Assembly (NCBI GenBank): GCA_964558645.1
Contig: CAZLEV010000014.1
Coordinates: 8,773 to 72,772 of the forward strand
Direction of reading: 5' to 3'
Origin: an uncultured archaeon
GTDB lineage: Archaea; Asgardarchaeota; Thorarchaeia; Thorarchaeales; Thorarchaeaceae
Length of the DNA: 64,000 nucleotides
Made by a program: the position numbers and the translations under genes. Within the stretch, counting starts at the first letter, position 1. Each line of letters begins with the position of its first letter. The notes under the pieces are model-generated. The model was not told where the DNA came from. It was given only the letters and a program-made list of their open reading frames with translations, and did not search any database. Positions 29,424 through 50,500 of the stretch are shown here, in pieces.

Positions 29424-32400
29424 CTATTCCTCATCGTCCTGAGTCTTCGACTCCAGGACTCGTCGCAGCTCCTCAGCGCTGAGTTGCATCAGCTCCTCTG
29501 TCGGAAACGCCTCTCGTATCTCATCAGGTAGCGTCTCGATGAGCTCCATCTTGAGCCGATCTTCTTCGGAAGGCTCTTCTTCGGCCACTGTTTCGACTTC
29601 TTCGACCTTATCTTCAGCCTCGTCCTCAGAGGATTCTAACTCAGGCTCGAGCTCGTCTTCGATCTCAGGTTCCGCATCAGCCTCCGCCTCCTCTTCCGGT
29701 TCAGCATCGGCCTCCGAGGTCTCTTCCAATTCAGGCTCCGCTTCTTCCTCCGGCTCGATATCTGCCTCCGCGTCACCCTCAGGTTCAAGATCTTCAGTTG
29801 GCTCTTCAACGCTTTCAACCTCCGGTTCTGGTTCAGCCTCGGCCTCTGCCTCAATCGAATCCATCTCTGCCTCAAGCTCAGCCTCGTAGTCTGCCATCTC
29901 GGCTTCAAGGTCATCAGCACCCTCCGCTCCAACCTCGTCCAAGGCGTCGAGTTCGCCCAAGAGATCTTCAGTATCTTCGTCGAGCATCTCCTCATAACCG
30001 AGGTCAGAAGTGACTTCAATACGAGGTGCCTGAATATCGAGGTCTGCAAGACCAGGAGCAAGAAGATCTGATACAACTGCACCCATGTCCTTGATACCCT
30101 CGACCTTGGCAGCCTTGTTGTCTGCAATCTTCTTGAGCGCAGCATTGATCTGCTTGATCTGATAGGGTACTCTCCATCGACGAACGGCAGTGACTACGCT
30201 TCCGACAACAATGAATCCACCCAACATCAACAAGAAGAGGAACAACTGTGACTGCGGGACAACTAGTGTTGTCACTACAAGTGGAATTGTGAACTGGGTC
30301 TCTATGACGCGGGCCTCAGCCGTGACTCCGATATGACTCTCATAGCCATCTGCAACAATACTGACTGTGATGGCGTAGGGATCACTGCTTATTTCTCCAA
30401 TCTGTAAGGGGGAGATCTCAATGTAGTAACGACCATCTTCAGCCACAGCAAAGTCATCCTTGGTGAACTCTGCCATTGGCGTTGTCAGCGTCAATGAGGT
30501 TACAGCAGAGAAGGGTACCTGCTGGTTCTTCGTGGTGTCAAAGTAGTTCACGTATATAGTTACAGAATCATCTATCTGTACCTGGATGTTTGGCACTGTC
30601 AGGCTCGTCGACGCCGAAATGTGCAAGGTGACCTGTGTAGTAGCTGTCGTGTAGTTGTCCAATGTGGCGGTGAAGTTCACCGTGAATATCCCAGGTATCA
30701 GAGAGGAATCCAGTGTCGTGGGATCGAGAACGAACCTGTAGGTTGCAGTGGAGGCATCCCAGGTTCCGGCCTGACCACCAGCGAAGTCTGAAATCATTTC
30801 ATCTGCTCTAAGGACTCGGCCAGCAAAGGTCATTCCTGAGCTGATGTTGTAGGTCAAGCGCACCGTGAAAGCAGGACCTCCGTAGATACCCTCGAAGGTG
30901 CTCTGACTCGGATACAGACCGGCTGTCACGGCCTCGACTGTGACTTCGACAGTCCAGCTACTGAAAGTGTAATTCTTGTTAGATGTGTGAACCACAATGA
31001 TGTACTCGCCCGCAGAGATCTGGCTTGAGTTGACTGTGGTGAGATATCCGCCGTTCCCAATACCGCTGAAAATCCCGGATACTGAGGTTCCTTGCCAAGT
31101 GTACATGACAGTCAGTCCGTTGATAGGGTTGTCCAACGAACCATAATCTTGATTCACGTTGACACGAAGGTCAAACTCCTCACCCCAGACCACCGAAATA
31201 GGAGTCGTCTGAGATACGTCCTTAGTAATGACCGCCGGAATCGGACGGACATAGAGGTCTGTCGAGTTTGTACCATCGACATAGTTGTCGAGAGTATACG
31301 AGAACTCAAATGAGTACTCCGTGCTCCCACTGAACCAGTCGTCAGTTTGGATGATCCAAGTGAATATGCCCGAACCGTTGTTACTGATCAGCTGAGTGTA
31401 ACCAGTGCCAGGTACTGTCAGGGTTATCGCTGCCGCTCCATCCACCAGCACGTTGTGTTCAGTGTCCCAGAGTCTAGCCACAAGCTGCAGTTCGTTACTC
31501 CAGTTGACCTCATCCACCTCATCGATTATAAGTGCAGTAGGTGCCTCCCGAATGAGAATGACAGCCGTTGTGAGTTCATGAGGTTCGAATCCGCTACGAG
31601 TCATGGTGATTCTCACAACGTAGACAGAGCCCTGAACAGCGGCCGTCATGCCCAGGTCCCGGGTATTCAGGCTGAATGTGTACCATCCATCACCACTGTT
31701 GACACCCGTGGTAACATTGGCTGAAATCCCAAGGACTGCGCAGGTGGCTGTGTCAATCTCAGTGATGGGGAGATTGTCAAGCGTATTGTTCCAGTAGAAC
31801 AATACGTCGAATGTATCGTCGTAGAACTGCTCGTAGTAGTCCTGGTCCAAGATTATCTCGTTGGGAGTTGAACTAATCACTACATAGATTGTGGACACTG
31901 TTGTGGTGCATCCTGCCTTTTCTGCGGTGAGTACGATTGTGTAGTAGTCATCAATGTAAGACAGGTCGTTTGGAAGCGCATTGTTTGCATTCAGAGTCAC
32001 GTAGTAGAGTCCTGATGCCCCCTCTGTCAGCGTTCCACTCTGATCAATCACCGACTCCATGTACCAGGAGTAGGTGATGCCAGCTCCATCCACAGGTGTA
32101 TCAGTTCTTGATTGGTCGAAGAGCGTGACGTTTATGTCGAACGTATGTGTCCAGTAGGTCTCCAGTGGACTCTCTGCGGAACCGAAGGACGTCTCAACCA
32201 ACAACGGAATGAGGATTGTGATATCAACCTGAACCTCTGCGTTCTCGTGATTGGCAAGGGAGAATTCGACGGAAACTGTGTAGGTATCCGACTGCGCTGA
32301 CGTGTCGAAGCCGAGCCTGTAGACACCAGAGCCCTGGTAACTCACCGACATCGGCTGTGTCCAGTTGCTTGTAACAGACGCACCGGACAGGCCAACAATC

Positions 32401-35400
32401 CCGCTGTCGCGGACGAATGAGAGGTCAAATACTCCTGTGTCCAACCAGTCTACAGTTATTGCGGATGAAGTTATGAGATCGAGAGTCGTTGGTGCAGGAC
32501 TGACATGTAGTAGCAGGGAGTCAGCTGCGGCTGTTTCGTAGTTAGACTTGGAACAGGTGACCCTCAAGAAGTAGTCTGCATTTGCATCTAACAGATCAGA
32601 GGGGAAGGTTGTTGTGTATGTTCCAAGCGTTGGACTAAGTGTCCGAGGGGTCATATTGTAAATCGACACCCAGCTGCTAGTGAACCATTGTAAGGTGACA
32701 GTAATCCCGGAGAGTTCTGGGTTGCTTGAGTTCAGGTCGTTAATGTAGTCGAAAGCAATTATTTCGCTTCCGGTGTCCCAGAAATAGCTACTTGCAATCA
32801 ACGAATCAACTCTCATCGGAACAGGGTCGATGGTGACATCTAGGACAACCGTCCTATTGACATAGTTCTGCTTCGATAGAGCAATCGTGACCGTATAGAA
32901 TCCCACCGGCAACCCGTGTAGAGCACTTGCTGGCAAGGTATAGAACTCACCAGCATCTACTAGACTACCCCAGCTCACGTTTGTGGCACCCAGTTTGACA
33001 AGGTATGTGTACCCATCCAAGTCTGCAAGATTCATACTACTCGGAATACTTGTGCTTAGCCAGAAGTCGTGCGCTTCATGTGTCTTGTAGTAATCGTCAA
33101 TGGCACTTGTACTCTTTCCCAGTGTGGTGGAAGTAGCCTTCACTGTTATGTAGAAGGTCAAGGGCGTCGGATCATCGACGCTATCGTCATGAGCAGAAAC
33201 AATCACGATATATGCCGTATCTGATACATTCATTTTCCAGAAAAGGGTGTCAATCTGGATGGTGAAGTTGAGTCCACCGGTCTGGTCGTAGACATGGTTG
33301 GAGCCACTCCAGTTCCAAGTTCCACTACCTATTGGATTTCCTGAGAAGTATATTGTGAAGTTCACCCAGGATGACGAGTCGAACAATATTAGCTTGTCTT
33401 CTGGTGAACCAACACTCCCATCTCTATCGTAGAATCCAACTGTGAAGTTCACATGCTGGCCATAGAATGGGCTTGCGAAGTATGCAGTTGAGTTAAGCTC
33501 CGAATAGAGATCATCATATAAATCAGTGGGAAGAGTGATGACGTTCACATACGTCCAATTGTAGTCACATCGCACGACAATCGCGGATGTAGTAGTTTCA
33601 CCGGACTTGATGACTACTGTATAGCTCACAGACTGCGGAGAAGACATGTTTCCATGAATATTGTAGAACACCGCATATCCTGTGGAGTTCGTTGAGCCTT
33701 GAGCAACAACCCCTATTCCTACGAGTGTTACATTGACTTGAGCCCCTTGTACAGGAGATGTGTCACTTATCTGAGCCTTGACATTGAGCCGCGTAATTGC
33801 GAGGCCAACTGTCTGAGAATGTTCTCCTTGAATGTCCAACATCTCGATTGAGTTGTTGTACGCGATTGGCGTGTCGGAGTAGTCATCATGTTTCTCCACC
33901 CGGGCATACCAAGAGCCATTAACAACACGGTGGAAGTTGTATTTGCCATCAGCGTTTGTCTTTCGGGTCAAGTCATACTCGGGACCGGCAGTATTGTTGA
34001 TAGTTACATATGCGTTCTGGACTGGTTGGTCGTCCCAGCTTACAACATCTAGCCGGATTGTGACTAGTGGCATAGTCCACGAGTGCTGGAACGGGGACGA
34101 ACTGAACTCATCTGATGCAATGGACCAGCTACCAAAGTCCGCAATTTGTTCGTATGTATACGATGATACGTTGCCATTGTAGCTAGCGAAGACAGTGTAA
34201 TCATCCTGAGGAATACGATAGAAGTTCGCCCAGCCACTTGAGTTTGTGGACACCTGAGCAGAGTAGACGCCGGAATCGGACTCATTTGACATCCGCAGCG
34301 TTGTGGTTTCGTCTGGCGTCTGAGCCATTGCATCACCCATGAGATCCTTCATGTAGATGGAGAAGCTACCCATAGGAAGTGTAACAGTGACGGGTGTCAC
34401 CGGCCCGGTGATGCTTTCTGTCGGACTTGCCTGAACCCAGAGTTCAGCATAGGATGTGGTGAGCCAACTCTTTGCATCGATTTCTGTGCGAATCGTGTAG
34501 TCCCCGTCACTGAGACCCTCAAAGACAACGAGACCATTGCTGTCAGTTGTTCCTGTTCGATTCAGACCGTTGTCATCCACCCAGAGGGTTCCATCGCTTG
34601 CGTTATAGAGGGTTACCGTTGCTCCCTCGACTGGGAAACCATCAAGGTCCTCTACAGTTACGTCGAACTCGAAGAGGTGGATTTCATCGCTGATGGATAT
34701 GGCAAGGGCGTTCTCATCGGCATCATTGTTGAAGGTCGGAACCATCCATCCATATCCAGTGTCTCCTGTCGGGTTGTATGGTGAAGAGGTCGAGAATTTG
34801 CCAACCAGCACTACTGAGACTGATGCATTTGAGTTGATGTGGTAAAGGGTAGCGGATGAAGATAGGGGGCGAAAAGCGGCCGCCCCGCCTGCGGGAATAC
34901 TCAACGTTCCGCTGTTGTAGCCGCTGACCTCGACTCGGGCGTTCTCTGTGGCCACAATCATGAACTTCCATCCGTTGTTGCCCCACATCTTGAAGCTCGA
35001 TCCGTATCGATCGCCTGACAAGGAGGGAACCCAATCGCCTGCGTCTCCAGGAGTGTCAGGCCTGTATACTCCATAGACCATCAGATTAGCTCCTGACTCT
35101 CCCTTGATATGGAGAATGTCTTCTTGGTCACCAGAACCGGCCGAACCACGTGGGATATCGACTGAACTATTGGCGCCGATCCGTTCCGTAGTCTTGGATC
35201 CCCATCCCGAACCGGCATTGCGCCAGTAATCAACGTCTACGGCTGAATCGCCCAGATTCGTAACGCGTGTGTAATCGTAGGAGTGCCCCATGTCTATGGT
35301 GTAGAATTCCTCGCCGCTCAGCTTGCCATCAATTGCGGGGTATAGACCCAGGATGTCACGGGCATATGAGCTGTCGGAGTCTCCAAACCGGGCCGATACA

Positions 35401-36509
35401 GGCTTCGTCGCATTGACATAGAGGTAGACTGTATAGACAACATCACGACGCGAGATATATTCGCCTGCAGAGAGCTTTGCGGGCCATCCAGCGAGGCTCG
35501 AACCATTGTGAAACTGCCAGTTGCTTGCTGTTTCTGCACTGCCATCGGAAGTCCAAACGTAGACCTCTGTGTCATCAGTCTGAGCCTGAATCCAGTACTT
35601 GCCCTCATTCTTGTCTTCGAATCCCTCGACACCACCGAGAATGAACTCGGTATCGGTTCCAGTGCCTATCTGGCTTACTGCTGGGAACCAGTCGTTGATG
35701 GCAGGGTTCGACCCCTTGTCGCCTTGACCCACGCTGACAGCAAGTGGATAGTTGGAATACACGGCATAGAAGCCATGCCAGTTTGTGTAGCTGTAGGAGT
35801 TAGGCTCATAGCGTACGTTTTGCATGCGATTCAGGGTTCCATTTGGTACGTTATCAGGAGTCATTGTGTCGGCACTCCAAACAGAATCCACATCTCGGGG
35901 GTCTTTCCATGCTTGATCGGAGCTATCCCACATCTCCACGTAGTAGTTATTCTCATCGTAGAAAGACACCAAGTTCAGAAGAGAGAACGTGTACGACTTG
36001 TAGACGAACGGGTAGAAATCAGGATAGCTGACCGACCCGACATCCTCTTTCGCATAGTAGAGATAGTAGTTCGTTTCTATGTCATTTTGACTCACATTCA
36101 CCATGAAACTGATAGTGGTAGAGAGGACGAAGTCCCCATCGTATGTCGTATTCCAAGTCTGGAATGGTAGGTCAGTCCAGCCAGGACTGTTGTAGTATTC
36201 AACTCTGATTGAGTCACGATAGCAATGTCCTGATGTGAATGTGAGATAGAGATGAACAGGAACTAGCGTCCTATCTGAAACATCAGGTTCGGTGAAATTG
36301 AGGTACCTTCTGTAGATGAAGGACGAATTCCACCACTCTGCTTGGTCCTGAGCACCGGCGAGTTCGGACTGATTCGCGTAAGGCTGCATGAAATCGTTGT
36401 CAACAAGGGGATCCAGGTTGATATCATGGGTGTTCGGAGAGCCAACAATCATGGGGAGTATCATGATTATTCCAAAGGCAAGTAGTAGGGCAAGACGATT
36501 TCTCTTCAC
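29424..36509 (-). CDS. Giant (2361 aa) type-I membrane surface protein with Ig-like/prealbumin-fold repeats and acidic cytoplasmic tail
   Basis: Signal peptide; DUF2341-like WWNSSFIYRR; V.D.DG.PV.GA.VT repeats; many G.Y.I.....NY Ig-like units; many NxS/T sequons; single TM LFLFLLMLGGFIVVGSVVTAV; E/D-rich tail. Confidence 0.9.
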   Translation of the reverse strand: MKRNRLALLLAFGIIMILPMIVGSPNTHDINLDPLVDNDFMQPYANQSELAGAQDQAEWWNSSFIYRRYLNFTEPDVSDRTLVPVHLYLTFTSGHCYRDSIRVEYYNSPGWTDLPFQTWNTTYDGDFVLSTTISFMVNVSQNDIETNYYLYYAKEDVGSVSYPDFYPFVYKSYTFSLLNLVSFYDENNYYVEMWDSSDQAWKDPRDVDSVWSADTMTPDNVPNGTLNRMQNVRYEPNSYSYTNWHGFYAVYSNYPLAVSVGQGDKGSNPAINDWFPAVSQIGTGTDTEFILGGVEGFEDKNEGKYWIQAQTDDTEVYVWTSDGSAETASNWQFHNGSSLAGWPAKLSAGEYISRRDVVYTVYLYVNATKPVSARFGDSDSSYARDILGLYPAIDGKLSGEEFYTIDMGHSYDYTRVTNLGDSAVDVDYWRNAGSGWGSKTTERIGANSSVDIPRGSAGSGDQEDILHIKGESGANLMVYGVYRPDTPGDAGDWVPSLSGDRYGSSFKMWGNNGWKFMIVATENARVEVSGYNSGTLSIPAGGAAAFRPLSSSATLYHINSNASVSVVLVGKFSTSSPYNPTGDTGYGWMVPTFNNDADENALAISISDEIHLFEFDVTVEDLDGFPVEGATVTLYNASDGTLWVDDNGLNRTGTTDSNGLVVFEGLSDGDYTIRTEIDAKSWLTTSYAELWVQASPTESITGPVTPVTVTLPMGSFSIYMKDLMGDAMAQTPDETTTLRMSNESDSGVYSAQVSTNSSGWANFYRIPQDDYTVFASYNGNVSSYTYEQIADFGSWSIASDEFSSSPFQHSWTMPLVTIRLDVVSWDDQPVQNAYVTINNTAGPEYDLTRKTNADGKYNFHRVVNGSWYARVEKHDDYSDTPIAYNNSIEMLDIQGEHSQTVGLAITRLNVKAQISDTSPVQGAQVNVTLVGIGVVAQGSTNSTGYAVFYNIHGNMSSPQSVSYTVVIKSGETTTSAIVVRCDYNWTYVNVITLPTDLYDDLYSELNSTAYFASPFYGQHVNFTVGFYDRDGSVGSPEDKLILFDSSSWVNFTIYFSGNPIGSGTWNWSGSNHVYDQTGGLNFTIQIDTLFWKMNVSDTAYIVIVSAHDDSVDDPTPLTFYITVKATSTTLGKSTSAIDDYYKTHEAHDFWLSTSIPSSMNLADLDGYTYLVKLGATNVSWGSLVDAGEFYTLPASALHGLPVGFYTVTIALSKQNYVNRTVVLDVTIDPVPMRVDSLIASSYFWDTGSEIIAFDYINDLNSSNPELSGITVTLQWFTSSWVSIYNMTPRTLSPTLGTYTTTFPSDLLDANADYFLRVTCSKSNYETAAADSLLLHVSPAPTTLDLITSSAITVDWLDTGVFDLSFVRDSGIVGLSGASVTSNWTQPMSVSYQGSGVYRLGFDTSAQSDTYTVSVEFSLANHENAEVQVDITILIPLLVETSFGSAESPLETYWTHTFDINVTLFDQSRTDTPVDGAGITYSWYMESVIDQSGTLTEGASGLYYVTLNANNALPNDLSYIDDYYTIVLTAEKAGCTTTVSTIYVVISSTPNEIILDQDYYEQFYDDTFDVLFYWNNTLDNLPITEIDTATCAVLGISANVTTGVNSGDGWYTFSLNTRDLGMTAAVQGSVYVVRITMTRSGFEPHELTTAVILIREAPTALIIDEVDEVNWSNELQLVARLWDTEHNVLVDGAAAITLTVPGTGYTQLISNNGSGIFTWIIQTDDWFSGSTEYSFEFSYTLDNYVDGTNSTDLYVRPIPAVITKDVSQTTPISVVWGEEFDLRVNVNQDYGSLDNPINGLTVMYTWQGTSVSGIFSGIGNGGYLTTVNSSQISAGEYIIVVHTSNKNYTFSSWTVEVTVEAVTAGLYPSQSTFEGIYGGPAFTVRLTYNISSGMTFAGRVLRADEMISDFAGGQAGTWDASTATYRFVLDPTTLDSSLIPGIFTVNFTATLDNYTTATTQVTLHISASTSLTVPNIQVQIDDSVTIYVNYFDTTKNQQVPFSAVTSLTLTTPMAEFTKDDFAVAEDGRYYIEISPLQIGEISSDPYAITVSIVADGYESHIGVTAEARVIETQFTIPLVVTTLVVPQSQLFLFLLMLGGFIVVGSVVTAVRRWRVPYQIKQINAALKKIADNKAAKVEGIKDMGAVVSDLLAPGLADLDIQAPRIEVTSDLGYEEMLDEDTEDLLGELDALDEVGAEGADDLEAEMADYEAELEAEMDSIEAEAEAEPEPEVESVEEPTEDLEPEGDAEADIEPEEEAEPELEETSEADAEPEEEAEADAEPEIEDELEPELESSEDEAEDKVEEVETVAEEEPSEEDRLKMELIETLPDEIREAFPTEELMQLSAEELRRVLESKTQDDEE
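29540..29960 (-). repeat. Coding low-complexity acidic repeat (EAEPE/EADAEPE)
   Basis: Degenerate repeats in the cytoplasmic tail of the giant protein; limits approximate. Confidence 0.6.
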
Positions 36510-37676
36510 TTACTGCACCTCCATTGCTGCAGCCACATTGCTTGGGTGGAATTTCTTCAACACCTCAAGATAGTGCTTGGCCTGTCGGCTCGGTATCTCC
36601 TCACCGTTGTAAAGATCAACAGTTCTCTGGATAAGCCATTCAGGATATACGGTCATGACCTCGGGATTTGATTTGAGAAGAATGTGTTCTCTGCCCTCTT
36701 CATCGTTGATGCGCGTGACAATGTTGCCCTTTTCCAGCTTCTTCACTTGCTTTCTTAGCTGTGACTTGGTCACATCAAGGAGACTTGGCAAGTGTTCTGT
36801 CTGCTGTGGGCCTTCTCGTAGAATCTCAATTATGTCATATGCATCGAAGTCCAAGAGATACTTGGTGAGCTCTTGAGCGTCTTCCCATAGCGAATCGGTG
36901 AGGTCCTTTCGAAGCCGGCCAACGTAGTTCTTGTGATATCTCTTCGCAGAGTCAAGGTACTGCTCTGCAACTCCTGTAGGCAGCTGACCCGTCTTCACAG
37001 CGCGGATAGTGTCCTGTGATATGGTTCGCAGCAGAAAAAGTGCACGCGTAAGATAGATGACTTCGGTGGAGAACCCTTCAACCCATCCAGTTGCGATGAT
37101 TCCCATCTTCACCAGCGGTCTAAGAACCATGTCTACATCAATCTTCTTTCCGACCTCTTCGAAGATTATCTGCTCTAAATCAGATGACTCGATGGTTCCG
37201 TTCTTCATCAGCGTCTGTAGAATAGACCTTCTTACGGGATCGCTGAGAACAGATGCCTGCCTCTGTTCGGGGGTCATCTGGGTGTATCGTGCCATCTGCC
37301 CGTATAGTTTCGGAACAAGCTTCTGATATGCATCATCATCTGCGTTCAAAAAGATCTGGGTGGCAATCTCGGGCAGTGCATCCTTGTACACATCAGCATC
37401 CTCTTCGGGGCCGAGTACCAAGAACACCATCGAAGGTTTTCCTTTTAGATGCATGTTCAATCCGCCGTAGTATACTGCCAGTTTGAACTCATCAAAAGCC
37501 AACGATGTAAAACCGGGCTTCTGAGACTCTTCAGTCTCCCCCAGTGTTGCTATGCCATAGACGCGCATGCTTGTCGTCGGATCAAGCCCTAATTGTAGAC
37601 TCTTCGGTGTCTTAGAAGTCACAACGGGCCCGAGCTCATCATCCCATTTCAATACAGCCAATCCTTCGGGCACCAA
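36510..37676 (-). CDS. uDENN/longin domain plus two winged-helix domains (NPRL2/3-like architecture)
   Basis: LAVLKWDDELGP resembles the F/WDxxxGP start of uDENN/NPR2 longins; wHTH-like DPVRRSILQTL...LVKMGII and IIEILREGP...LEKGNIV. Confidence 0.7.
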   Translation of the reverse strand: MVPEGLAVLKWDDELGPVVTSKTPKSLQLGLDPTTSMRVYGIATLGETEESQKPGFTSLAFDEFKLAVYYGGLNMHLKGKPSMVFLVLGPEEDADVYKDALPEIATQIFLNADDDAYQKLVPKLYGQMARYTQMTPEQRQASVLSDPVRRSILQTLMKNGTIESSDLEQIIFEEVGKKIDVDMVLRPLVKMGIIATGWVEGFSTEVIYLTRALFLLRTISQDTIRAVKTGQLPTGVAEQYLDSAKRYHKNYVGRLRKDLTDSLWEDAQELTKYLLDFDAYDIIEILREGPQQTEHLPSLLDVTKSQLRKQVKKLEKGNIVTRINDEEGREHILLKSNPEVMTVYPEWLIQRTVDLYNGEEIPSRQAKHYLEVLKKFHPSNVAAAMEVQ

Positions 37677-37999: not shown

Positions 38000-38947
38000 C
38001 TACCACCAGTCAGCCTCTTCTTCCTTTGCCCGGGATTCGAGATCTCGATATAGAACAGTCTGGAAGATGAAGTTCAGAGGGCTGAGTAGCAGAGATACAA
38101 TGAGACTTCCTACGAGAGCCAGTGCGGGACTGACGAAAGCCACTGCCTCCACTATCACTAGGAGTACAAGGCTAACCACAAAAACAGCAATCGCCATGAT
38201 GATCACTCCTCCCAGCGTGTGCCAAAAGGCACCTCCTGTAATCTGATAGGCCCTCTTGATGGCTCCGAAGGCAGATTGTTCCTCTTCAGCCACGACAACT
38301 GCGATTGTCGGAATAAGCCTGACCACGAGAAAGAGGGTGACCAACGCACCAACAAGCAAGACCACTCCGCCCAAGGCGATGGAATTCCAAGTTGACGGAT
38401 CCGCGGGGTCGAAAGCAAGAGCACTGAGTAGCATTATGCCAAGACCAGGGAGGATCGGTATTGCAAGAATCAGACCCTGAAGAAACGATGCGGCAATCAG
38501 TGTGATTGCTCTGCTTACACCGTATGACAACGCGGATCTGACGTCTCCTGCGCCGGGATTACCATAGTCTTGGAGAGCGAACTTGATTGCACCGCCTCCC
38601 ACTACAGCGCCGACCAAGATACTGACAAGTGAGAGCGCTACTATAACTACGAGCAGCACGATGTCTGTTAGACCAGTAAGACTGAAAATCGAAACCAGCA
38701 GACCCAGAGGGTCCGAGAACACTAGTTCCAACAGATTGAATGCAGCTGCACCGTAGAGCGCATAGAGGACTACGAACGAAACTGCACTCATCACAACAGA
38801 CACAATACCCACAATGAGTACGTAGCTTACGAGCCTTCTCATCCAAAGGCTGAATGTGCGCGACACCAGACCTGCTACTCCGACCGAGTAATCTCGCCCA
38901 GAGGGTTGCTCAGGTGCCGGACCAGAATCATTTCCTATTTCTACCAA
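38000..38947 (-). CDS. Multi-pass membrane protein (GDPD membrane-domain-like)
   Basis: About 6 TM helices; AIKRAYQITGGAFW and VLYRDL motifs. Confidence 0.8.
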   Translation of the reverse strand: MVEIGNDSGPAPEQPSGRDYSVGVAGLVSRTFSLWMRRLVSYVLIVGIVSVVMSAVSFVVLYALYGAAAFNLLELVFSDPLGLLVSIFSLTGLTDIVLLVVIVALSLVSILVGAVVGGGAIKFALQDYGNPGAGDVRSALSYGVSRAITLIAASFLQGLILAIPILPGLGIMLLSALAFDPADPSTWNSIALGGVVLLVGALVTLFLVVRLIPTIAVVVAEEEQSAFGAIKRAYQITGGAFWHTLGGVIIMAIAVFVVSLVLLVIVEAVAFVSPALALVGSLIVSLLLSPLNFIFQTVLYRDLESRAKEEEADWW

Positions 38948-39105
38948 TCAACTACCTCCATATACCGATGCTTGTTCATGTATGACTTGGCTTATAGAAC
39001 TTGCCAAAGATTGTCAGCACCCATTGCAATCTGTCTTGCATCGAACATAGGACAATGCTAATCAGTGGAAACCTCGTATGAAGGATTACAACATCTTTCT
39101 GTGAG

Positions 39106-39474
39106 TTGTCCACAACGAGGAAAAAAAGGAACAGACGTGGTAGAGGGAAACATTCACCACGCGGATATTTGCAGCACAATTGGAGACCAAGGGAAACACA
39201 CAGTCCGAGTGTGTTTTATCTTAGTGCAGAGAGGATAAGGACTCAGAGAATACCTGATAGCAATCTCACGTCCCAGCAGCGTAGATTCTCGGGGGCCAAG
39301 CCGGTAGGGGTCGACCCGGTACTCTGTGTCGGATGTGGAGCTTGTATCGATGCTTGTCCACAAGGCGCGATAGATGTCACAGGACGAAAAGCCCATGTTG
39401 ATCCGTACAGGTGCTCTGGCTGCGGCTCATGCACGCAGGTCTGCCCTCAAGGAGCCATCGGATGGGCGAGGTAG
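39106..39474 (+). CDS. 2[4Fe-4S] ferredoxin-domain protein (start uncertain)
   Basis: CVGCGACIDACP and CSGCGSCTQVCP. Confidence 0.8.
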   Translation: MSTTRKKRNRRGRGKHSPRGYLQHNWRPRETHSPSVFYLSAERIRTQRIPDSNLTSQQRRFSGAKPVGVDPVLCVGCGACIDACPQGAIDVTGRKAHVDPYRCSGCGSCTQVCPQGAIGWAR

Positions 39475-39505
39475 AAACCACGCAGGGCATATCCGATACA
39501 TGAGC

Positions 39506-40462
39506 CTAACGTTTAGTGGCCCTACTCGGCAATGCACGCATGTAATAGGATGAGCCCCCATATTCGAGTTCCACAAGCTGGCCATCATCAATCAGACTAT
39601 GAATAATGGTCCAGTCGGACTCGGACTTGGCCAGCAGTTCTCGAACCGCATCTATACGCATTGGATGGACTGAGGTGATGCTGAGCAGGTCCTCTCTGGG
39701 GTCTCCAGTTGAAGCAAACTCATTTCCTTCGTAGCCGATAAGGTGTTCTACACGGTCGGTTCCAAGCTCATCAGCAAAACTCTGGAAAGCTTGGTTTATC
39801 ACTGACTCCGCGGGCGGGAACACTCCGTCCTCTGCAGGGGGCCTCGTGGGAATCGCAACATACGCTCTATCGATGCCCAGTTCACTCAAGAAACGTGCAG
39901 TCTTCCCGAACTCTCCCTTGTAATCAACCGTATTGACCAGCATTGTCTCCGAGAGTATCTTACCTTCGTACTCTTCACAGAACCTGCGGATTCCGTCCAT
40001 TACTCTTTCAGGGGCCAAGGAGCCATGAGGCCTGTTGACACGATGCCAGAGTCTGGAAGTCACAGCGTCAACTTTGATCGAAACAAGGTCCATATGATTT
40101 AGACGAGCTCGCACATCAGCATCCCAGAGAAGTGATGCATTAGTCAGAATTGCAAGGGGAATCTTGAAGTCCTTCAGCAAAGCAGCAGTATCTCCCAGAT
40201 TCGAATCGAGAGTTGGCTCACCATCAGGGACGAATGTGAGATAGTCAATTCTCTCATTGTTTTTCTTGGCATTGCTGACTTGCTGCGTCACTTTATCCAA
40301 AATCCGTTCAGGAGAGTAGAACGATCTCTGCTGTACCGTCAGATCAGTGGTTCGCCCCAGCTGACAGTAGGTGCATGAGTAGGAACAGGACTTCGCGCTG
40401 ATGTTGTTTATTCCAAGACTTCGTCCTAGACGCCTTGAGGGAACAGGACCGTAAGCGATCAT
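39506..40462 (-). CDS. Radical SAM protein (COG0731, TYW1-related)
   Basis: YGPVPSRRLGRSLGIN, CSYSCTYC, DGEPTL, TNASL. Confidence 0.9.
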   Translation of the reverse strand: MIAYGPVPSRRLGRSLGINNISAKSCSYSCTYCQLGRTTDLTVQQRSFYSPERILDKVTQQVSNAKKNNERIDYLTFVPDGEPTLDSNLGDTAALLKDFKIPLAILTNASLLWDADVRARLNHMDLVSIKVDAVTSRLWHRVNRPHGSLAPERVMDGIRRFCEEYEGKILSETMLVNTVDYKGEFGKTARFLSELGIDRAYVAIPTRPPAEDGVFPPAESVINQAFQSFADELGTDRVEHLIGYEGNEFASTGDPREDLLSITSVHPMRIDAVRELLAKSESDWTIIHSLIDDGQLVELEYGGSSYYMRALPSRATKR

Positions 40463-45152: not shown

Positions 45153-47470
45153 TGAAACAACCGTTCATTGTAAGTTGGACAAGCTTGGACATCAAGCAGT
45201 CCGTCCAGGAGCGGCACTGGACTGGTGATTGTGCACGTGAATGATGTTTCGTGCCGCATTCACATCGGCATGGAAGTGCTCCTCACACCTCCCACAGTAG
45301 AAGTACTCCCCACCCCTTCTCTCCCTCGTGGAACTCTCATGCTCCACCCGGACTCCCCGCCCCCCACAGACATGGCAGGTCTGAGAGGTCCACGCCGGGC
45401 TCACCGTCCAGATCCCACCGTAGCGGTGGCCCAGAGTCTGCCGCATGTACCGTATGGTGTCCAGCACCTTGGACCAGAGATTGTTCGATAGCCGCCACGA
45501 GTGAGTGCCATAGCCCCTGGGCGGCTGGTAGTTTTTGAGGTTCTCCAGATACAGGGTCTTGACCCCGTGGCGCTCACAGAACCAGACGGCCTCTGACGCA
45601 ATCTGTCGGGCTATCTCCCTGTCCAGCCTGCGAATCTTGCGCCAGATGGCTGCAAGACGACGCTCCTTCTTCCTCAGATGCCCGGGCCTTGGACAGTCCT
45701 CCCCGTGCTTCTTCTCCCAGTTGTTCCGCATCAAGGCCACTCTCGATGACAACTGCCGGGTCTGCTGTCGGAGAAGATCCCTCTTCTCGACCAGCCCTTC
45801 AAGAGAGATGAGCTCATCGACATACTCTTCCTCACCATCTCTCACCGAGAGCACGATAGGCACACGGATTCCTCGGTCGGCACCGGCTCTCCTGTTGTAG
45901 TGCCGTTCACCCAGGACCGCATCTACCATCTCTCGAGTTGGCGGGAGGAAGGGGATCTGGAGTTCTACTCTGTGCTCACGAAGCAAGAGGCGAGGTGGGC
46001 CGCAGGTTCTGGACTTCCTGAGCTGCTGCACCTTCTCCTTCAGTTGTGCAAGCTGCTCAGGGTCCGCATCCTTTCGGTTTCTCCACTTCGCCAACTGGTA
46101 GGTAGTATGCTGGAGTTCGATGGTGTTCATGAGCTGTTCGTGTTGATCCTCGAACCGCACGGCCCGGAATCGCAGCTTCTTGGCTCGCAGGTGCTTCCCA
46201 GCTCGCTCTGCCTCATCGCCCTTCATCCGGTCCTTGACGGCAGCCCGTGGGAGCCAGTCCAGAAACCTGAGGCCAAGGGTTCTGACTCGGAAGGGCGAGG
46301 CATCATGCTCCGCTCCCTCCATCGCCTCTGGCAGCTTCAGGAAGAACAGCACCTCGTTCTCCTTCTCCAAGTCCTGTGAGTACCAGTAGCCCTGACCGGG
46401 AGAGTTCTCGGTGCTTGCTGAGAAGTCCTCGGTGTGGGAGTACATCCTCGGGACCTTGAAGGGATAGCCCTCCGTGGTGAACTGATGAAGGAGGGCCTGA
46501 ACGGAAGCCATGGCCTCTGAGCACTCCTTGTTATCTTTGACGTACCGTCGAACACGGCGCCGCTGCGATGGTCTGGAACCAAGGGGCTCTCCGCGTTCGC
46601 TCAGGATGTGCTCATCGAGAGCTCGACGAAGCTGCTTCAGAACAGAGAGGGCGTAGTAGTAGCCTGAACCATTGTTCTTCGTGCTCTCGCATCTGGAGCG
46701 CAGATCTTTTACCATGTCCGAGGGGATGTATTTGTTCTTCAGTAATCGCAGAAGAGTATCCTGTTCCTCATTGAGAAGTCCGATAGCTGTCTTCATGAGC
46801 TGACGCCGTAGCCAGTTGGACTGGATGATCCGAGCCGCCTGCTCCAGGACGTTCCGGTAGAGTCTCTCGAAGCACTGCTTGCTGATATCGGGATTGTCCT
46901 TGTATGCAAGATACTCCTCCTTCTTCAACAGGACATATCCCTGTCCTCGATAGGAGTTCAGCTCGTCTCCAAGGAAGTCAATCCGTTCACGGGAAGCATA
47001 CACACGCTCGAGAACGAGATTCACGAGCTCTACATACTTCTCGAAGTATCGACCCAGAAGAGAGAGGTCCACATCCCTGACCTTTCGCCCGGTAGCCGCC
47101 TCGATATCTTTTCGTACAGGTTCAGGACTCCAGCGGCGAAATCGAGGATCGGGTCGCTTCCCTTTCCCCTTCGTGTTCACCTCTCTATCTACCGAGCAGA
47201 GGGTGAACGACTGTACCAGATACTTCAGTCCCGTATTCTGATGCGCGGTTGATGGAAACAATATAAGTTTGCCATCCATTGTGAGATGCTTCTGGGAATC
47301 ATCAGACTCCTCTTGCTTCCGGGGACGGCGCCGGACTACCTTGGTCATCAATCGTGCACCTCTCTTCTGTCTGGGTCTGATAATATAATCTCATGAACCA
47401 ATATAAGTTTATCAAGACGAAAAGGCAATTAGAGCATTATGAAGCCTATTTCGCTTCTATAAGGCTCTCA
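45153..47470 (-). mobile_element. IS200/IS605-like (TnpB-only) element; boundaries approximate
   Basis: tnpB-like gene; candidate right end ...GGTTGTTTCA at 45153; imperfect hairpin at 47431-47468 upstream; no tnpA seen. Confidence 0.55.
45192..47351 (-). CDS. tnpB: Large TnpB/Cas12-like RNA-guided endonuclease (719 aa)
   Basis: RuvC-I GADRG (D492), RuvC-II LYLENL (E603), Zn finger TSQTCHVCG...CGRC, RuvC-III HADVNAARNI (D696). Confidence 0.9.
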   Translation of the reverse strand: MMTKVVRRRPRKQEESDDSQKHLTMDGKLILFPSTAHQNTGLKYLVQSFTLCSVDREVNTKGKGKRPDPRFRRWSPEPVRKDIEAATGRKVRDVDLSLLGRYFEKYVELVNLVLERVYASRERIDFLGDELNSYRGQGYVLLKKEEYLAYKDNPDISKQCFERLYRNVLEQAARIIQSNWLRRQLMKTAIGLLNEEQDTLLRLLKNKYIPSDMVKDLRSRCESTKNNGSGYYYALSVLKQLRRALDEHILSERGEPLGSRPSQRRRVRRYVKDNKECSEAMASVQALLHQFTTEGYPFKVPRMYSHTEDFSASTENSPGQGYWYSQDLEKENEVLFFLKLPEAMEGAEHDASPFRVRTLGLRFLDWLPRAAVKDRMKGDEAERAGKHLRAKKLRFRAVRFEDQHEQLMNTIELQHTTYQLAKWRNRKDADPEQLAQLKEKVQQLRKSRTCGPPRLLLREHRVELQIPFLPPTREMVDAVLGERHYNRRAGADRGIRVPIVLSVRDGEEEYVDELISLEGLVEKRDLLRQQTRQLSSRVALMRNNWEKKHGEDCPRPGHLRKKERRLAAIWRKIRRLDREIARQIASEAVWFCERHGVKTLYLENLKNYQPPRGYGTHSWRLSNNLWSKVLDTIRYMRQTLGHRYGGIWTVSPAWTSQTCHVCGGRGVRVEHESSTRERRGGEYFYCGRCEEHFHADVNAARNIIHVHNHQSSAAPGRTA

Positions 47471-47542
47471 TAACTCTTTTCTTTTCTCTGTTTGGTCACA
47501 GTCTATTTATAAGTAACTTTGACTTTAGACTCTAGAAGTATC

Positions 47543-50500
47543 ATGGGACGCAGACCGAGATTGCTTCGCCCGAATGCTGTGCTAGCGAGAGCGAAGCATG
47601 CTGGTCTCATGGCCCTTGTCAACCTCCTTGGCCCTAGAGCCAGTGGCGACCTCGTGAAGTACTACCGTTCAACAACAAAGATGTGGGATGCCGTTCGATC
47701 TGCTCTTCGGGCTCAGGGCGGAGAGCGAGAGGACTACCTGGTTCTTAACGACACGGAGCCAAACATGCGGAAGTCCTTTCTCCAGTTCCTGTGGCACAGC
47801 ACTGTACCCTACGGCAACAAGGAGTTCAAACGGGTCTACGACTGGACTGAGGGTACGGTGGGGCCGCTCAATGTCCTCTTGAACTACGCGGGAGCACGAC
47901 TAAGGGACCTGGCAATGACGCGGTATCCCTTTCCTGAACCACGGGTCTTCCAGATAGCAAGGTTCCCGGATGGCACGGTGAGGGTCTATTCTCTAGCCCT
48001 CGTCAACCGGCTGAAGGCAAAGGGTCTGTACCCACCAAGTGACTTCGGCAAGAACACCGAAACCTCCTGGAAGGCGGGCTACAGCGGGACAACAAAGACT
48101 CCACAGGTCTACCTTGCGCACCCCACTCTCCCAAGCCTTGATTTTGTCGATATGATACGCGCCCACGTTGTCGAGCTCTGCAGACAGTGCTTCATCTACA
48201 GTGTTCCTCGCACTGAGGCCCACCGCTACATCCGACTCCTGGTCTACCGGCTGCGACCCTTCCTCGACTGGGTCTACACTGAGAGGGCCACAGGCCGACC
48301 CAACTTCAACCGGGATGCCAACAGGGAACTCCGAGAGATCGTACTGGAGATCAGAGCGTTGTACGGACTTCATGCCGGGCAGAGACAGTCGATCACTCGG
48401 TCCCTAGATATACCATCGCCAATCACTCTTGGGGATATCCGTAAGGCGGTAAAATGTCTCCCGCAAAAGACGGTGGATGAGGGCGAGATGACACTCTATC
48501 AGAGCATGAAGGACCAGATCGATGCCGGGACTGTGGTGGAACGGGATGCCGACAAGCTCACTGACCAGCTCTCCTCATCGACTTCACAGGAGGGCAACCG
48601 CTGGCACAGGATCCTCCTCTCGGGCTTCCACCACCCTGCCTCACTGAAGCAGGTGGTCTTTGCCGGGGACACCATGTTGGACCAGCCCTCCTCCGTCTTG
48701 GCTGTCGCAGAGCTTCCCGTAGACTCACGACGGGGACAGGCTGACCTCGTGTTCTTCCTCCGCCGAGAGCTCGAGAAGCGGACCATCTGGACACCGATCA
48801 TGATTCTTGAGGTCAAGACCAAGAGTGCCTTCGATATCAACCTCTACGGTGTTGAGGTGGGGAGCAGAGAGGAGAACGAGTATGCGCCCGCCTTCTTTGC
48901 GTGGAAGAGGGCACTCACAGGGGGCGAGTGGAATGCATTGCTCACATCACCGCCGAAGAAGAGCACAAAAGGTCAGCTCGATGCGTACGAACAGGCCATC
49001 ATCAGGGAGTACAAGCGCACGGCGGACTTCGACCCGACACCGCCCACCTCTCTCTGGAAGGGGGTCATCGTCCTGGATGCTGACCAGATTCCCATTGATG
49101 CATACTCAGCATTTCAGACTCTCATCGAAAACCTGCTGGTGGAACTGACAGGTGACACTTTCCAGGCCCCACCAAAGACTATCTCACAGGTGCTTGATAC
49201 AGACAGTATCTTGCCTTCTCCCCGGGTGGCGCTGCTCCTTCTGCCAGACGCAGGCCCTGATAGAATCCTCTCTCAGAGAGCCCCTCCGGCAGAGTTGGTC
49301 TCCGAGGACCCCTTTGCGGATCGCATTACAGACGACCGCATACTCACAGTCTACGTGTCCGTTCCCTCCCCGACATCATCAGGTAAGACGTCCGCATGGC
49401 AGTCGTCCAACTGGCACCTTCTCCACCACATCAGAGAGTGCAGAGAGGCCTCATCGCAAGAGATAGGTGTGTTCTGGCTGGATCTCATGGGGGACTACCA
49501 GACGGCTCAGCTGGCCAATCTACGGTTTGGACTTGACAGACTCCTTGCCGAGAGGAAGATATCCCGGCAGGAACACGGCGAGCTGGTCGCCGAGGTGGAG
49601 GATATCTCCTTCGTTGACCTTCATGTTCACACAGAGAAACTCCTGCGGGGCGAGAACGATTCCATAGAGGGCATGCTAACCACTATCTGCAATGCTGTTG
49701 AAACCGAGGTCGAGAAGATCATCATCATCGATGGGTGGGACGAACTGAGTAAGATGGTTCCCAATCATTCTCGTCATCTCCTACGCGCCCTGGAAGTGCA
49801 GCTACTGGATACGCTCCCCTCGACAGACACGAACATCATCTGGATCGATACCGGGACCGAGGACACCCTGACCTCCGCAGACTGTCAGCGAGGATGCATC
49901 AAACCTCTCCGCCATGACTCTCCCCGCAGGACGCACCTCGACGAGGTGATCTATAACCTCCCGTCCCCTCCGCGCGTCTTCGGCAACCTGTCCCCCTGGC
50001 GTGAGGACATACGAGTCATTGTTCAGGACACCCCCACATCGGCACCCCCATGGAGAACCACCATCCACGTCCCTCACCTTTTGGGTGCAGCAGAGCGATT
50101 CCGGGGGGCCTCCTCGAGGCATGGTTCACTCTCACAGGATGATGTGGCAAGGTTGGAGGTGAACGACTCCAGGATGTACGCGCGGAACATCAACCTCTCC
50201 TCCATCCAGTCCGGGCTGGGGAACCTAACCATGGACACGCTCGACAACGTCATGGAACAGTCCTGCAGTCTGGTTCCGAGTCTATGCCGTGCGAGAGACG
50301 GCCAAGAACAGCAGCCGCAGGAGGCACTGGAGATTCCGCAGATACTGGTGCAGGGTATCAGCTCTGCCAGGGCAAGTACCCAGCGGCAACGCCTCCGGTT
50401 CCAACCGGCTCGACCGCCTCCAGACCCCGTACGCTCTAAGGACAGGTATGTGGAGTCTGGGAAGATCACACGGCGGTGGTTCTATGAACGGAACCCCACA

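Follow-up and report, generated by a model that had tools for sequence, protein, structure and literature searches.

NPRL2 and NPRL3 (Npr2/Npr3; GATOR1/SEACIT), FLCN-FNIP and C9orf72-SMCR8 (PMC12290439) combine a longin domain with C-terminal winged helices and act on small GTPases at membranes; WD and GP motifs have been described at the start of longins of the GTPase-activating protein (GAP) type (PMC12290439). Asgard NPRL2-like longins and longin-GTPase fusions have already been published (10.1101/2020.10.19.343400; PMC10933270; PMC12290439): bioRxiv 10.1101/2020.10.19.343400 places an NPRL2-like family in most genomes of Thor and in a few of Loki, and also describes a Roadblock-GTPase-DENN operon, and Asgard GTPases have proved hard to pair with regulators from genome layout (PMC10933270). 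Actinobacterial conservons, CvnA-D (PMC13343842, PMC8510531), are operons of a membrane sensor, a roadblock-type regulator, a small DUF742 protein and a small GTPase. Here we analyse a 64,000-nucleotide stretch of DNA from an uncultured Thorarchaeaceae archaeon (the window), in which the gene of a 388-residue longin protein (the adaptor) is followed by those of a 2361-residue surface protein (the giant) and a 293-residue GTPase. Together with a juxtamembrane (JM) motif in the cytoplasmic tail of the giant, these parts form a genuine and widespread module that has apparently not been described; a literature search that covered few subscription papers returned no description of the JM motif, the fusions or the link to a surface protein.

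The adaptor resembles NPRL2/NPRL3-type proteins in its longin subtype (Z ∼11) and, less clearly, in its start of the WD/GP type, where GP is largely confined to Thor, and in having C-terminal winged helices; an action on a small GTPase at the membrane is proposed for it as well. It differs from them in the lack of a conserved arginine finger, in its ArsR-like winged helices and in low whole-chain similarity; moreover, it would be anchored by the tail of a surface protein, whereas the eukaryotic complexes are held by KICSTOR, Ragulator or WDR41, and its partner would be a longin-Arf-like GTPase instead of Rag. The accessible part of the preprint mentions no surface protein, JM motif or transmembrane (TM) fusion, and reports few Loki genomes, whereas we find the adaptor family in all 29 of 29 (four to nine copies each). 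The 293-residue GTPase appears to share the architecture of the Asgard longin-GTPase fusions (Tran et al. 2024, PMC10933270). Conservons use a histidine-kinase-like sensor and a roadblock; no kinase domain was found in the tail of the giant or in the operon, and here a giant ectodomain and a dedicated tail-docking motif are combined with a longin. The likeness is one of analogy, not of homology.

Several lines of evidence tie the giant to the adaptor. As the first-pass annotation had noted, the TAA stop codon of the adaptor open reading frame (ORF; 36512-36510) directly abuts the GTG start codon of the giant (from 36509), and the word GGAGGTG lies within the adaptor ORF, 6 nt 5′ of this GTG. 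This arrangement recurs in the 19 related loci inspected: stop and start codons lie 0-1 nt apart, and the last codons include a G-rich Shine-Dalgarno-like word; the coupling is therefore conserved beyond chance. The giant gene directly follows the adaptor gene in 25 of the 34 informative Thor loci, the GTPase gene taking this place in the other 9. Loki-type loci carry a JM-bearing single-pass gene directly upstream of the adaptor (28 of 29 top-scoring loci), and such a gene is found 0-1 genes away from the full-length adaptors examined in Odin (2/2) and Atabeya (2/2). Fusions of the order ectodomain-TM-JM-adaptor are present in Lokiarchaeia (9 + 27 database clusters, with full-length copies in several assemblies), and four proteins show the reverse order, adaptor-JM, without a TM helix. 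The predicted pairing with a surface protein is thus conserved: Thor, Odin, Loki and Atabeya, at least four Asgard classes, have the two genes as neighbours, and Loki has fusions as well.

It had also been proposed that contact is made through the cytoplasmic tail of the giant, and structure prediction points the same way. The modelled complex of JM and adaptor reached an interface score (ipSAE) of 0.83, compared with 0.00 for the best of three controls. The mark was attained by 58 of the solved pairs (n = 80) and by 2 of the mismatched pairs (n = 110); contact agreement between runs was at least 86%, the partner's predicted local distance difference test value (pLDDT) at least 78, and 112-126 contacts were formed. 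On the adaptor side, the predicted interface is made up of residues 212-263 and 341-379, while the longin stays free. The interface includes several of the most conserved positions of the family, among whose most conserved columns are P345, L/Y370, 373, 248, 212 and 219. The model supports binding of the JM of the giant to the adaptor, which we consider very probable.

The ectodomain of the giant spans ∼2060 residues of Ser/Thr-rich beta structure with Ig/prealbumin-like repeats and 44 N-glycosylation sequons. Within the 254-residue cytoplasmic tail, the JM stretch is conserved and the remainder is mostly acidic and variable. JM identity among Thor giants amounts to 49-71%, and the motif is kept in three giants with exchanged ectodomain heads (2-9% identity over residues 170-610). 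A pooled JM profile was positive in 35 of 41 genomes, mostly with 2-8 proteins each, largely giants of 1000-5900 residues; all 115 of 115 new database matches lie directly after a TM helix. Of the 48 large proteins with a single TM pass encoded in this genome, only ∼4 have the JM, which therefore marks a specific tail class. The motif has no informative sequence relative in the PDB.

Further observations concern these surface proteins. In four loci (L064, L016, L019, L021) the giant gene or the adaptor-giant pair is tandemly duplicated with differing ectodomain heads, which suggests surface-domain diversification. The giant gene of a same-genus genome (L011:11168-18423) is split into two ORFs near residue 1080, by a frameshift or an assembly error. 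Large single-pass proteins without the JM (G000:C8, of 1596, 1760 and 1879 residues; L054:11538-15518) bear cytoplasmic tails of ∼240-365 residues that are longin-like by pattern and may represent a second way to couple surface proteins to longins. A soluble 148-residue protein with an Arf-like, amphipathic-looking start and a JM without TM helix (G000:C1:3048-3494, L063) is encoded at a distance of ∼5 kb from the third adaptor-GTPase pair and may be a LAMTOR1-like membrane anchor; many Thor genomes have comparable small proteins near the third adaptor paralog. For the ectodomain head, Atlas offered an IgGFc_binding lead that covered 16% of members at a low recognition score; we did not count it as evidence.

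The annotation had further linked the adaptor to the longin-GTPase encoded about 340 nt after the giant; the distance is 338 nt. Motifs G1-G4 of the GTPase are intact and include the catalytic Gln (GHGGTGKT, G2 Thr157, DLGGQ, NKQD), and its best PDB matches are 8oun and ARF1 (E∼1e-26). In the nine Thor loci without an intervening giant, the adaptor and GTPase genes are at most ∼200 nt apart where they do not abut or overlap, and four of these nine have a JM giant two genes upstream. Each of the three adaptor paralogs of this genome has a longin-GTPase within two genes. The same neighbourhood is seen in Jord, Baldr, Atabeya, the genomes G034 and G035 and some Loki loci, with the two genes contiguous or overlapping in Jord, Baldr, G034, G035 and Thor paralog 3. 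A tree built together with the genome's own small GTPases places 15 of the 18 adaptor-adjacent GTPases in one clade (support 100/98), which holds just 3 of the 23 other GTPases of the genome. A specific longin-Arf-like subfamily thus appears to adjoin the adaptor genes, as expected from the proposed linkage, and judged by gene order and phylogeny, a functional link between adaptor and GTPase is likely. Within the 338-nt gap lies a hairpin that is a consensus match only (0.5 expected by chance); together with the pyrimidine tract after it, the hairpin indicates that the GTPase genes may be transcribed separately from the giant in this genome. The corresponding gap measures a mere 5-15 nt in some relatives.

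Beside the adaptor genes of other lineages we noted the following. ORFs of 440-480 residues after Loki adaptors, taken as P-loop GTPases, were a regular-expression artefact and were not counted; the one tested encodes a RuBisCO large chain, and on this one tested case several Loki loci (L058; L086-L102) have a RuBisCO large-chain gene 3′ of the adaptor gene. A baldrarchaeial operon (L057:11591-15358) encodes an adaptor, a GTPase, a 180-residue protein, a 303-residue protein with weak NPR2 and DUF742 matches, and a winged-helix protein, and recalls the content of conservons.

The proposed architecture of the adaptor, an N-terminal longin followed by two winged helices, is backed by its AlphaFold2 model (pLDDT 94.5; predicted template-modelling score 0.88) and by fold searches. 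The top VIA match of the longin is the Loki roadblock-longin protein 8yqg (Z 11.8-12.0, root-mean-square deviation (RMSD) 3.4, 127 residues aligned), tied with the GATOR1 chains 8fw5_B and 9o5a_H, taken as NPRL2 from chain length (Z 11.2; RMSD 2.5 over 117 residues for 8fw5_B). A SEA-complex chain, VAMP7, DENND1A (uDENN, Z 9.7) and Lst4 rank lower, so that NPRL2 is structurally the closest of the eukaryotic longins. A Foldseek search gave a divided answer: three matches had E <0.001 and all were GATOR1-complex chains, but the alignments of ∼350 columns yielded whole-chain template-modelling scores of only 0.2-0.3. The second winged helix adopts a genuine winged-helix fold of the ArsR/SmtB kind (Z 8.5-8.7; CzrA Z 8.7, RMSD 2.2, 81 residues aligned), and the C-terminal winged helices alone find their best matches among prokaryotic ArsR/MarR types. 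NPRL2 and NPRL3 chains were outside the top 50 in the search with residues 135-388, a result that is neutral on homology of the C-terminal part. Pfam and PDB sequence searches miss the longin and match the second winged helix alone, and the label 'ArsR regulator' in databases comes from this match only.

Every one of the 31 Thor orthologs has the WD and GP motifs. The GP motif before strand 2, found in this protein as well, occurs in only 12 of the 101 other family members, in which Gly alone is nearly invariant. In the β4-β5 finger loop, as assigned from the model strands and the known NPRL2 topology, Lys78 of this adaptor corresponds to Lys in 28/31 Thor orthologs; Arg is found in 2/31 of the Thor loops and in 22/101 of the others, and its column varies; the loop is mostly shorter outside Thor. 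The Pfam NPR2 profile (PF06218) had no match in this genome at E≤1 and none among 132 family members. An α/β cDENN core is absent, the longin being followed by the two winged helices and additional helices only. Taken together, these data do not uphold the suggestion of a GATOR1- or DENN-type GAP or guanine-nucleotide exchange factor subunit in the strict sense. The lack of a conserved arginine finger sets the adaptor apart from GATOR1-type catalytic subunits: its plan resembles that of NPRL2, but it does not qualify as a catalytic GAP longin.

Of the 131 Asgard genomes, 96 yielded members of the adaptor family, among them every genome of Thor, Loki, Odin, Freya, Jord and Atabeya that was searched. 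The adaptor profile search gave no match in Heimdallarchaeaceae (0/15), another Heimdall-labelled family (0/7), Borrarchaeum (0/2) and four further families, and the profiles of the JM and of the GTPase subfamily likewise detected neither of them in two Heimdallarchaeum genomes that consist of a single contig each. The joint lack of all three parts in the Heimdallarchaeum genomes searched counts in favour of one module. As far as these profiles can tell, it also speaks against a simple line of direct descent towards eukaryotic GATOR1, and the apparent absence from Heimdallarchaeia limits claims of direct ancestry.

We propose, with a probability of roughly one half, that a stable unit of surface protein and adaptor offers a non-catalytic longin platform to a cognate longin-Arf-like GTPase and so permits local control at the membrane. 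The giant would be an adhesin-like type-I membrane protein whose JM of ∼58 residues, as modelled, docks stably in the helical C-terminal part of the adaptor; the two would be made 1:1 through translational coupling, or as a single polypeptide in many Lokiarchaeia. The freed longin of the adaptor would most likely pair with the N-terminal longin of the GTPase, leading to recruitment and allosteric tuning at the site of the surface protein, a pairing that we infer from the gene linkage and from known longin-dimer platforms; the adaptor would be the non-catalytic partner because it has no arginine finger. In the weakest step of the scheme, the downstream amphipathic and coiled-coil proteins would act locally as effectors, shaping membrane or cytoskeleton where contact is made. 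That engagement of the ectodomain alters the state of the GTPase is a tentative extension of the scheme. It is possible, and rather doubtful, that the module represents old and widespread Asgard adhesion receptors, in which exchangeable giant ectodomains, the JM and the longin adaptor would switch a dedicated Arf-like GTPase on contact with a surface or a partner cell.

A number of observations weigh against this proposal. Loci within one class are related and not independent. The complex score expresses model confidence and was obtained with our own alignments, so that the calibration of the ipSAE mark holds roughly. Direct comparison of the Thor and Loki JM profiles is weak (hhalign probability 4.7), the family being held together by intermediates, the pooled profile and TM adjacency, and two Baldrarchaeia genomes (G031, G035) have adaptor and GTPase with no detectable JM. 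Three GTPases beside Loki fusions fall in another clade; the Odin loci have no GTPase beside the adaptor, and most Loki loci have none within 1.5 kb.

The AP and COPI cargo adaptors that work with Arf likewise bring together a longin-containing adaptor, an Arf-type GTPase and recognition of cytoplasmic tails. By analogy, the Arf-like GTPase could recruit the longin adaptor, with the JM as a sorting signal by which giants are placed on or delivered to protrusions or vesicles, an inside-out arrangement. This fits the occurrence of the JM in several surface proteins per genome, many of them away from adaptor genes, as well as the Arf-like G domain, the non-catalytic longin and the amphipathic and coiled-coil neighbours. 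However, the operon lacks trunk and coat subunits, and the tail motif is a folded unit that is often fused to the adaptor. Permanent fusions, strict coupling and the large predicted interface fit a stable unit better, and in the model the JM docks on the helical part instead of the longin; we regard a cargo adaptor as unlikely.

The adaptor could instead be a transcription regulator whose winged helices bind DNA and whose longin senses, held at the membrane by the tail until release. The second winged helix indeed scores above the Pfam HTH_20 cut-off, is best matched by ArsR/MarR repressors and has a basic recognition helix in Thor. Its exposed recognition-helix positions are, however, the least conserved among orthologs and often acidic outside Thor, the median net charge of both winged-helix domains is 0, and fusion to TM proteins in Loki fixes the adaptor at the membrane. 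Tandem winged-helix scaffolds without DNA binding are known from ESCRT-II and NPRL2/3, which also counts against such a regulator, and we judge it improbable. We see equally little probability in a two-part structural unit, in which the adaptor does no more than cap, cluster or chaperone the tail, with the GTPase next to it often but incidentally: Odin and most Loki loci do lack an adjacent GTPase, and a possible terminator separates giant and GTPase here, but the abutting or overlapping genes in Jord, Baldr, G034, G035, Thor paralog 3 and the nine Thor loci, and the single GTPase clade, speak for more than chance proximity. A true GATOR1/FLCN-type GAP subunit, whose longin would give the catalytic residue for the neighbouring GTPase, is highly improbable: the nearness to NPRL2, the constant WD and GP motifs of Thor and the loop Lys78 are outweighed by the rare and unfixed loop Arg, the shortened loop and scarce GP motif outside Thor and the lack of any NPR2 profile match.

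Positions of the features of the locus within the window, with the basis of each assignment
Feature	Position	Strand	Basis or remark
Adaptor ORF, 388 aa	36510-37676	minus	TTG start
Longin domain of adaptor, residues 1-130, with W11-D12 and G16-P17	37287-37676	minus	fold search, motif counts
Winged helix 1, residues ∼147-211	37044-37238	minus	model secondary structure, weak HTH_24 match
Region with predicted tail-docking surface, residues 212-263 and 341-379, conserved P345-E-W-L motif	36540-37043	minus	
Winged helix 2, residues ∼277-336, ArsR-like, variable recognition helix	36669-36848	minus	HTH_20, 30.2 bits, above cut-off
Shine-Dalgarno sequence GGAGGTG of giant gene, inside adaptor ORF (translational coupling)	36516-36522	minus	
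Giant, type-I surface protein, 2361 aa	29424-36509	minus	signal (residues 6-24), ectodomain, one TM helix, tail
TM helix, residues ∼2088-2107, followed by basic residues	30189-30248	minus	hydropathy
JM docking motif, residues 2109-2167 (∼58 aa), invariant Pro, nearly invariant Lys	30009-30185	minus	alignment, predicted complex
Acidic low-complexity tail, 47% Asp/Glu, poorly conserved	29427-29999	minus	
GC-rich hairpin followed by pyrimidine tract on the minus strand, possible terminator 3′ of giant	29377-29400		consensus match only
GTPase, 293 aa	28204-29085	minus	longin-like N-terminus (inferred from pattern) and Arf-like G domain
Coiled-coil protein, 188 aa, probable ATG at 28202	27636-28202	minus	co-occurs with giant
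121-aa protein, conserved amphipathic/basic N-terminus and coiled coil	27255-27620	minus	Thor operon core
454-aa long coiled coil, winged-helix-like C-terminal end	25807-27171	minus	accessory
127-aa conserved protein	25423-25806	minus	Thor operon core

Among the genes downstream of the GTPase, that of the 188-residue protein is present in 20 of 25 family genomes, the same set as those with the JM type of this giant, and is absent from 9/9 loci without a giant between adaptor and GTPase; this distribution suggests that it may be part of the giant's sub-module. The genes of the 121- and 127-residue proteins are retained even without a giant, and neither protein has an informative PDB relative. 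On the other side of the adaptor, a 315-residue multi-pass membrane protein, a ferredoxin and a radical-SAM-like gene (38000-40462) separate it from a thiolase gene in this genus only; outside the genus, the thiolase gene lies directly 5′ of the adaptor. Farther away, a 719-residue protein (45192-47351, minus strand) with a C-terminal Cas12f1/TnpB-like zinc-finger (TNB) domain is encoded divergently from a 1882-residue ORF without Pfam match (47519-53167, plus strand). The GC content of this stretch is 0.54-0.58 against ∼0.50, and it may be a mobile element whose TnpB-like protein is unusually large.

Asgard archaea are closely related to eukaryotes. Cultured Asgard cells have no ordered S-layer, bear many large surface proteins and crawl by adhesion and actin (PMC9834061, PMC13716822, 10.1101/2025.07.22.663070). 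For the question of how surface and cytoplasm are connected in Asgards, the module offers a testable connection between the cell surface and a small-GTPase switch. It offers a candidate regulator match and a membrane anchor for a longin-GTPase, and an NPRL2-type longin as a membrane-tethered platform outside eukaryotes. The tail motif, adaptor, interface and cognate GTPase subfamily are concrete and small enough for expression, with homologs throughout Lokiarchaeia. If the adhesion-receptor reading were true, the module would carry signals across the membrane from outside to inside, without a kinase, to the small GTPase of a prokaryote; it would function like integrin-type adhesion signalling and would be a candidate control system for Asgard protrusions and crawling.

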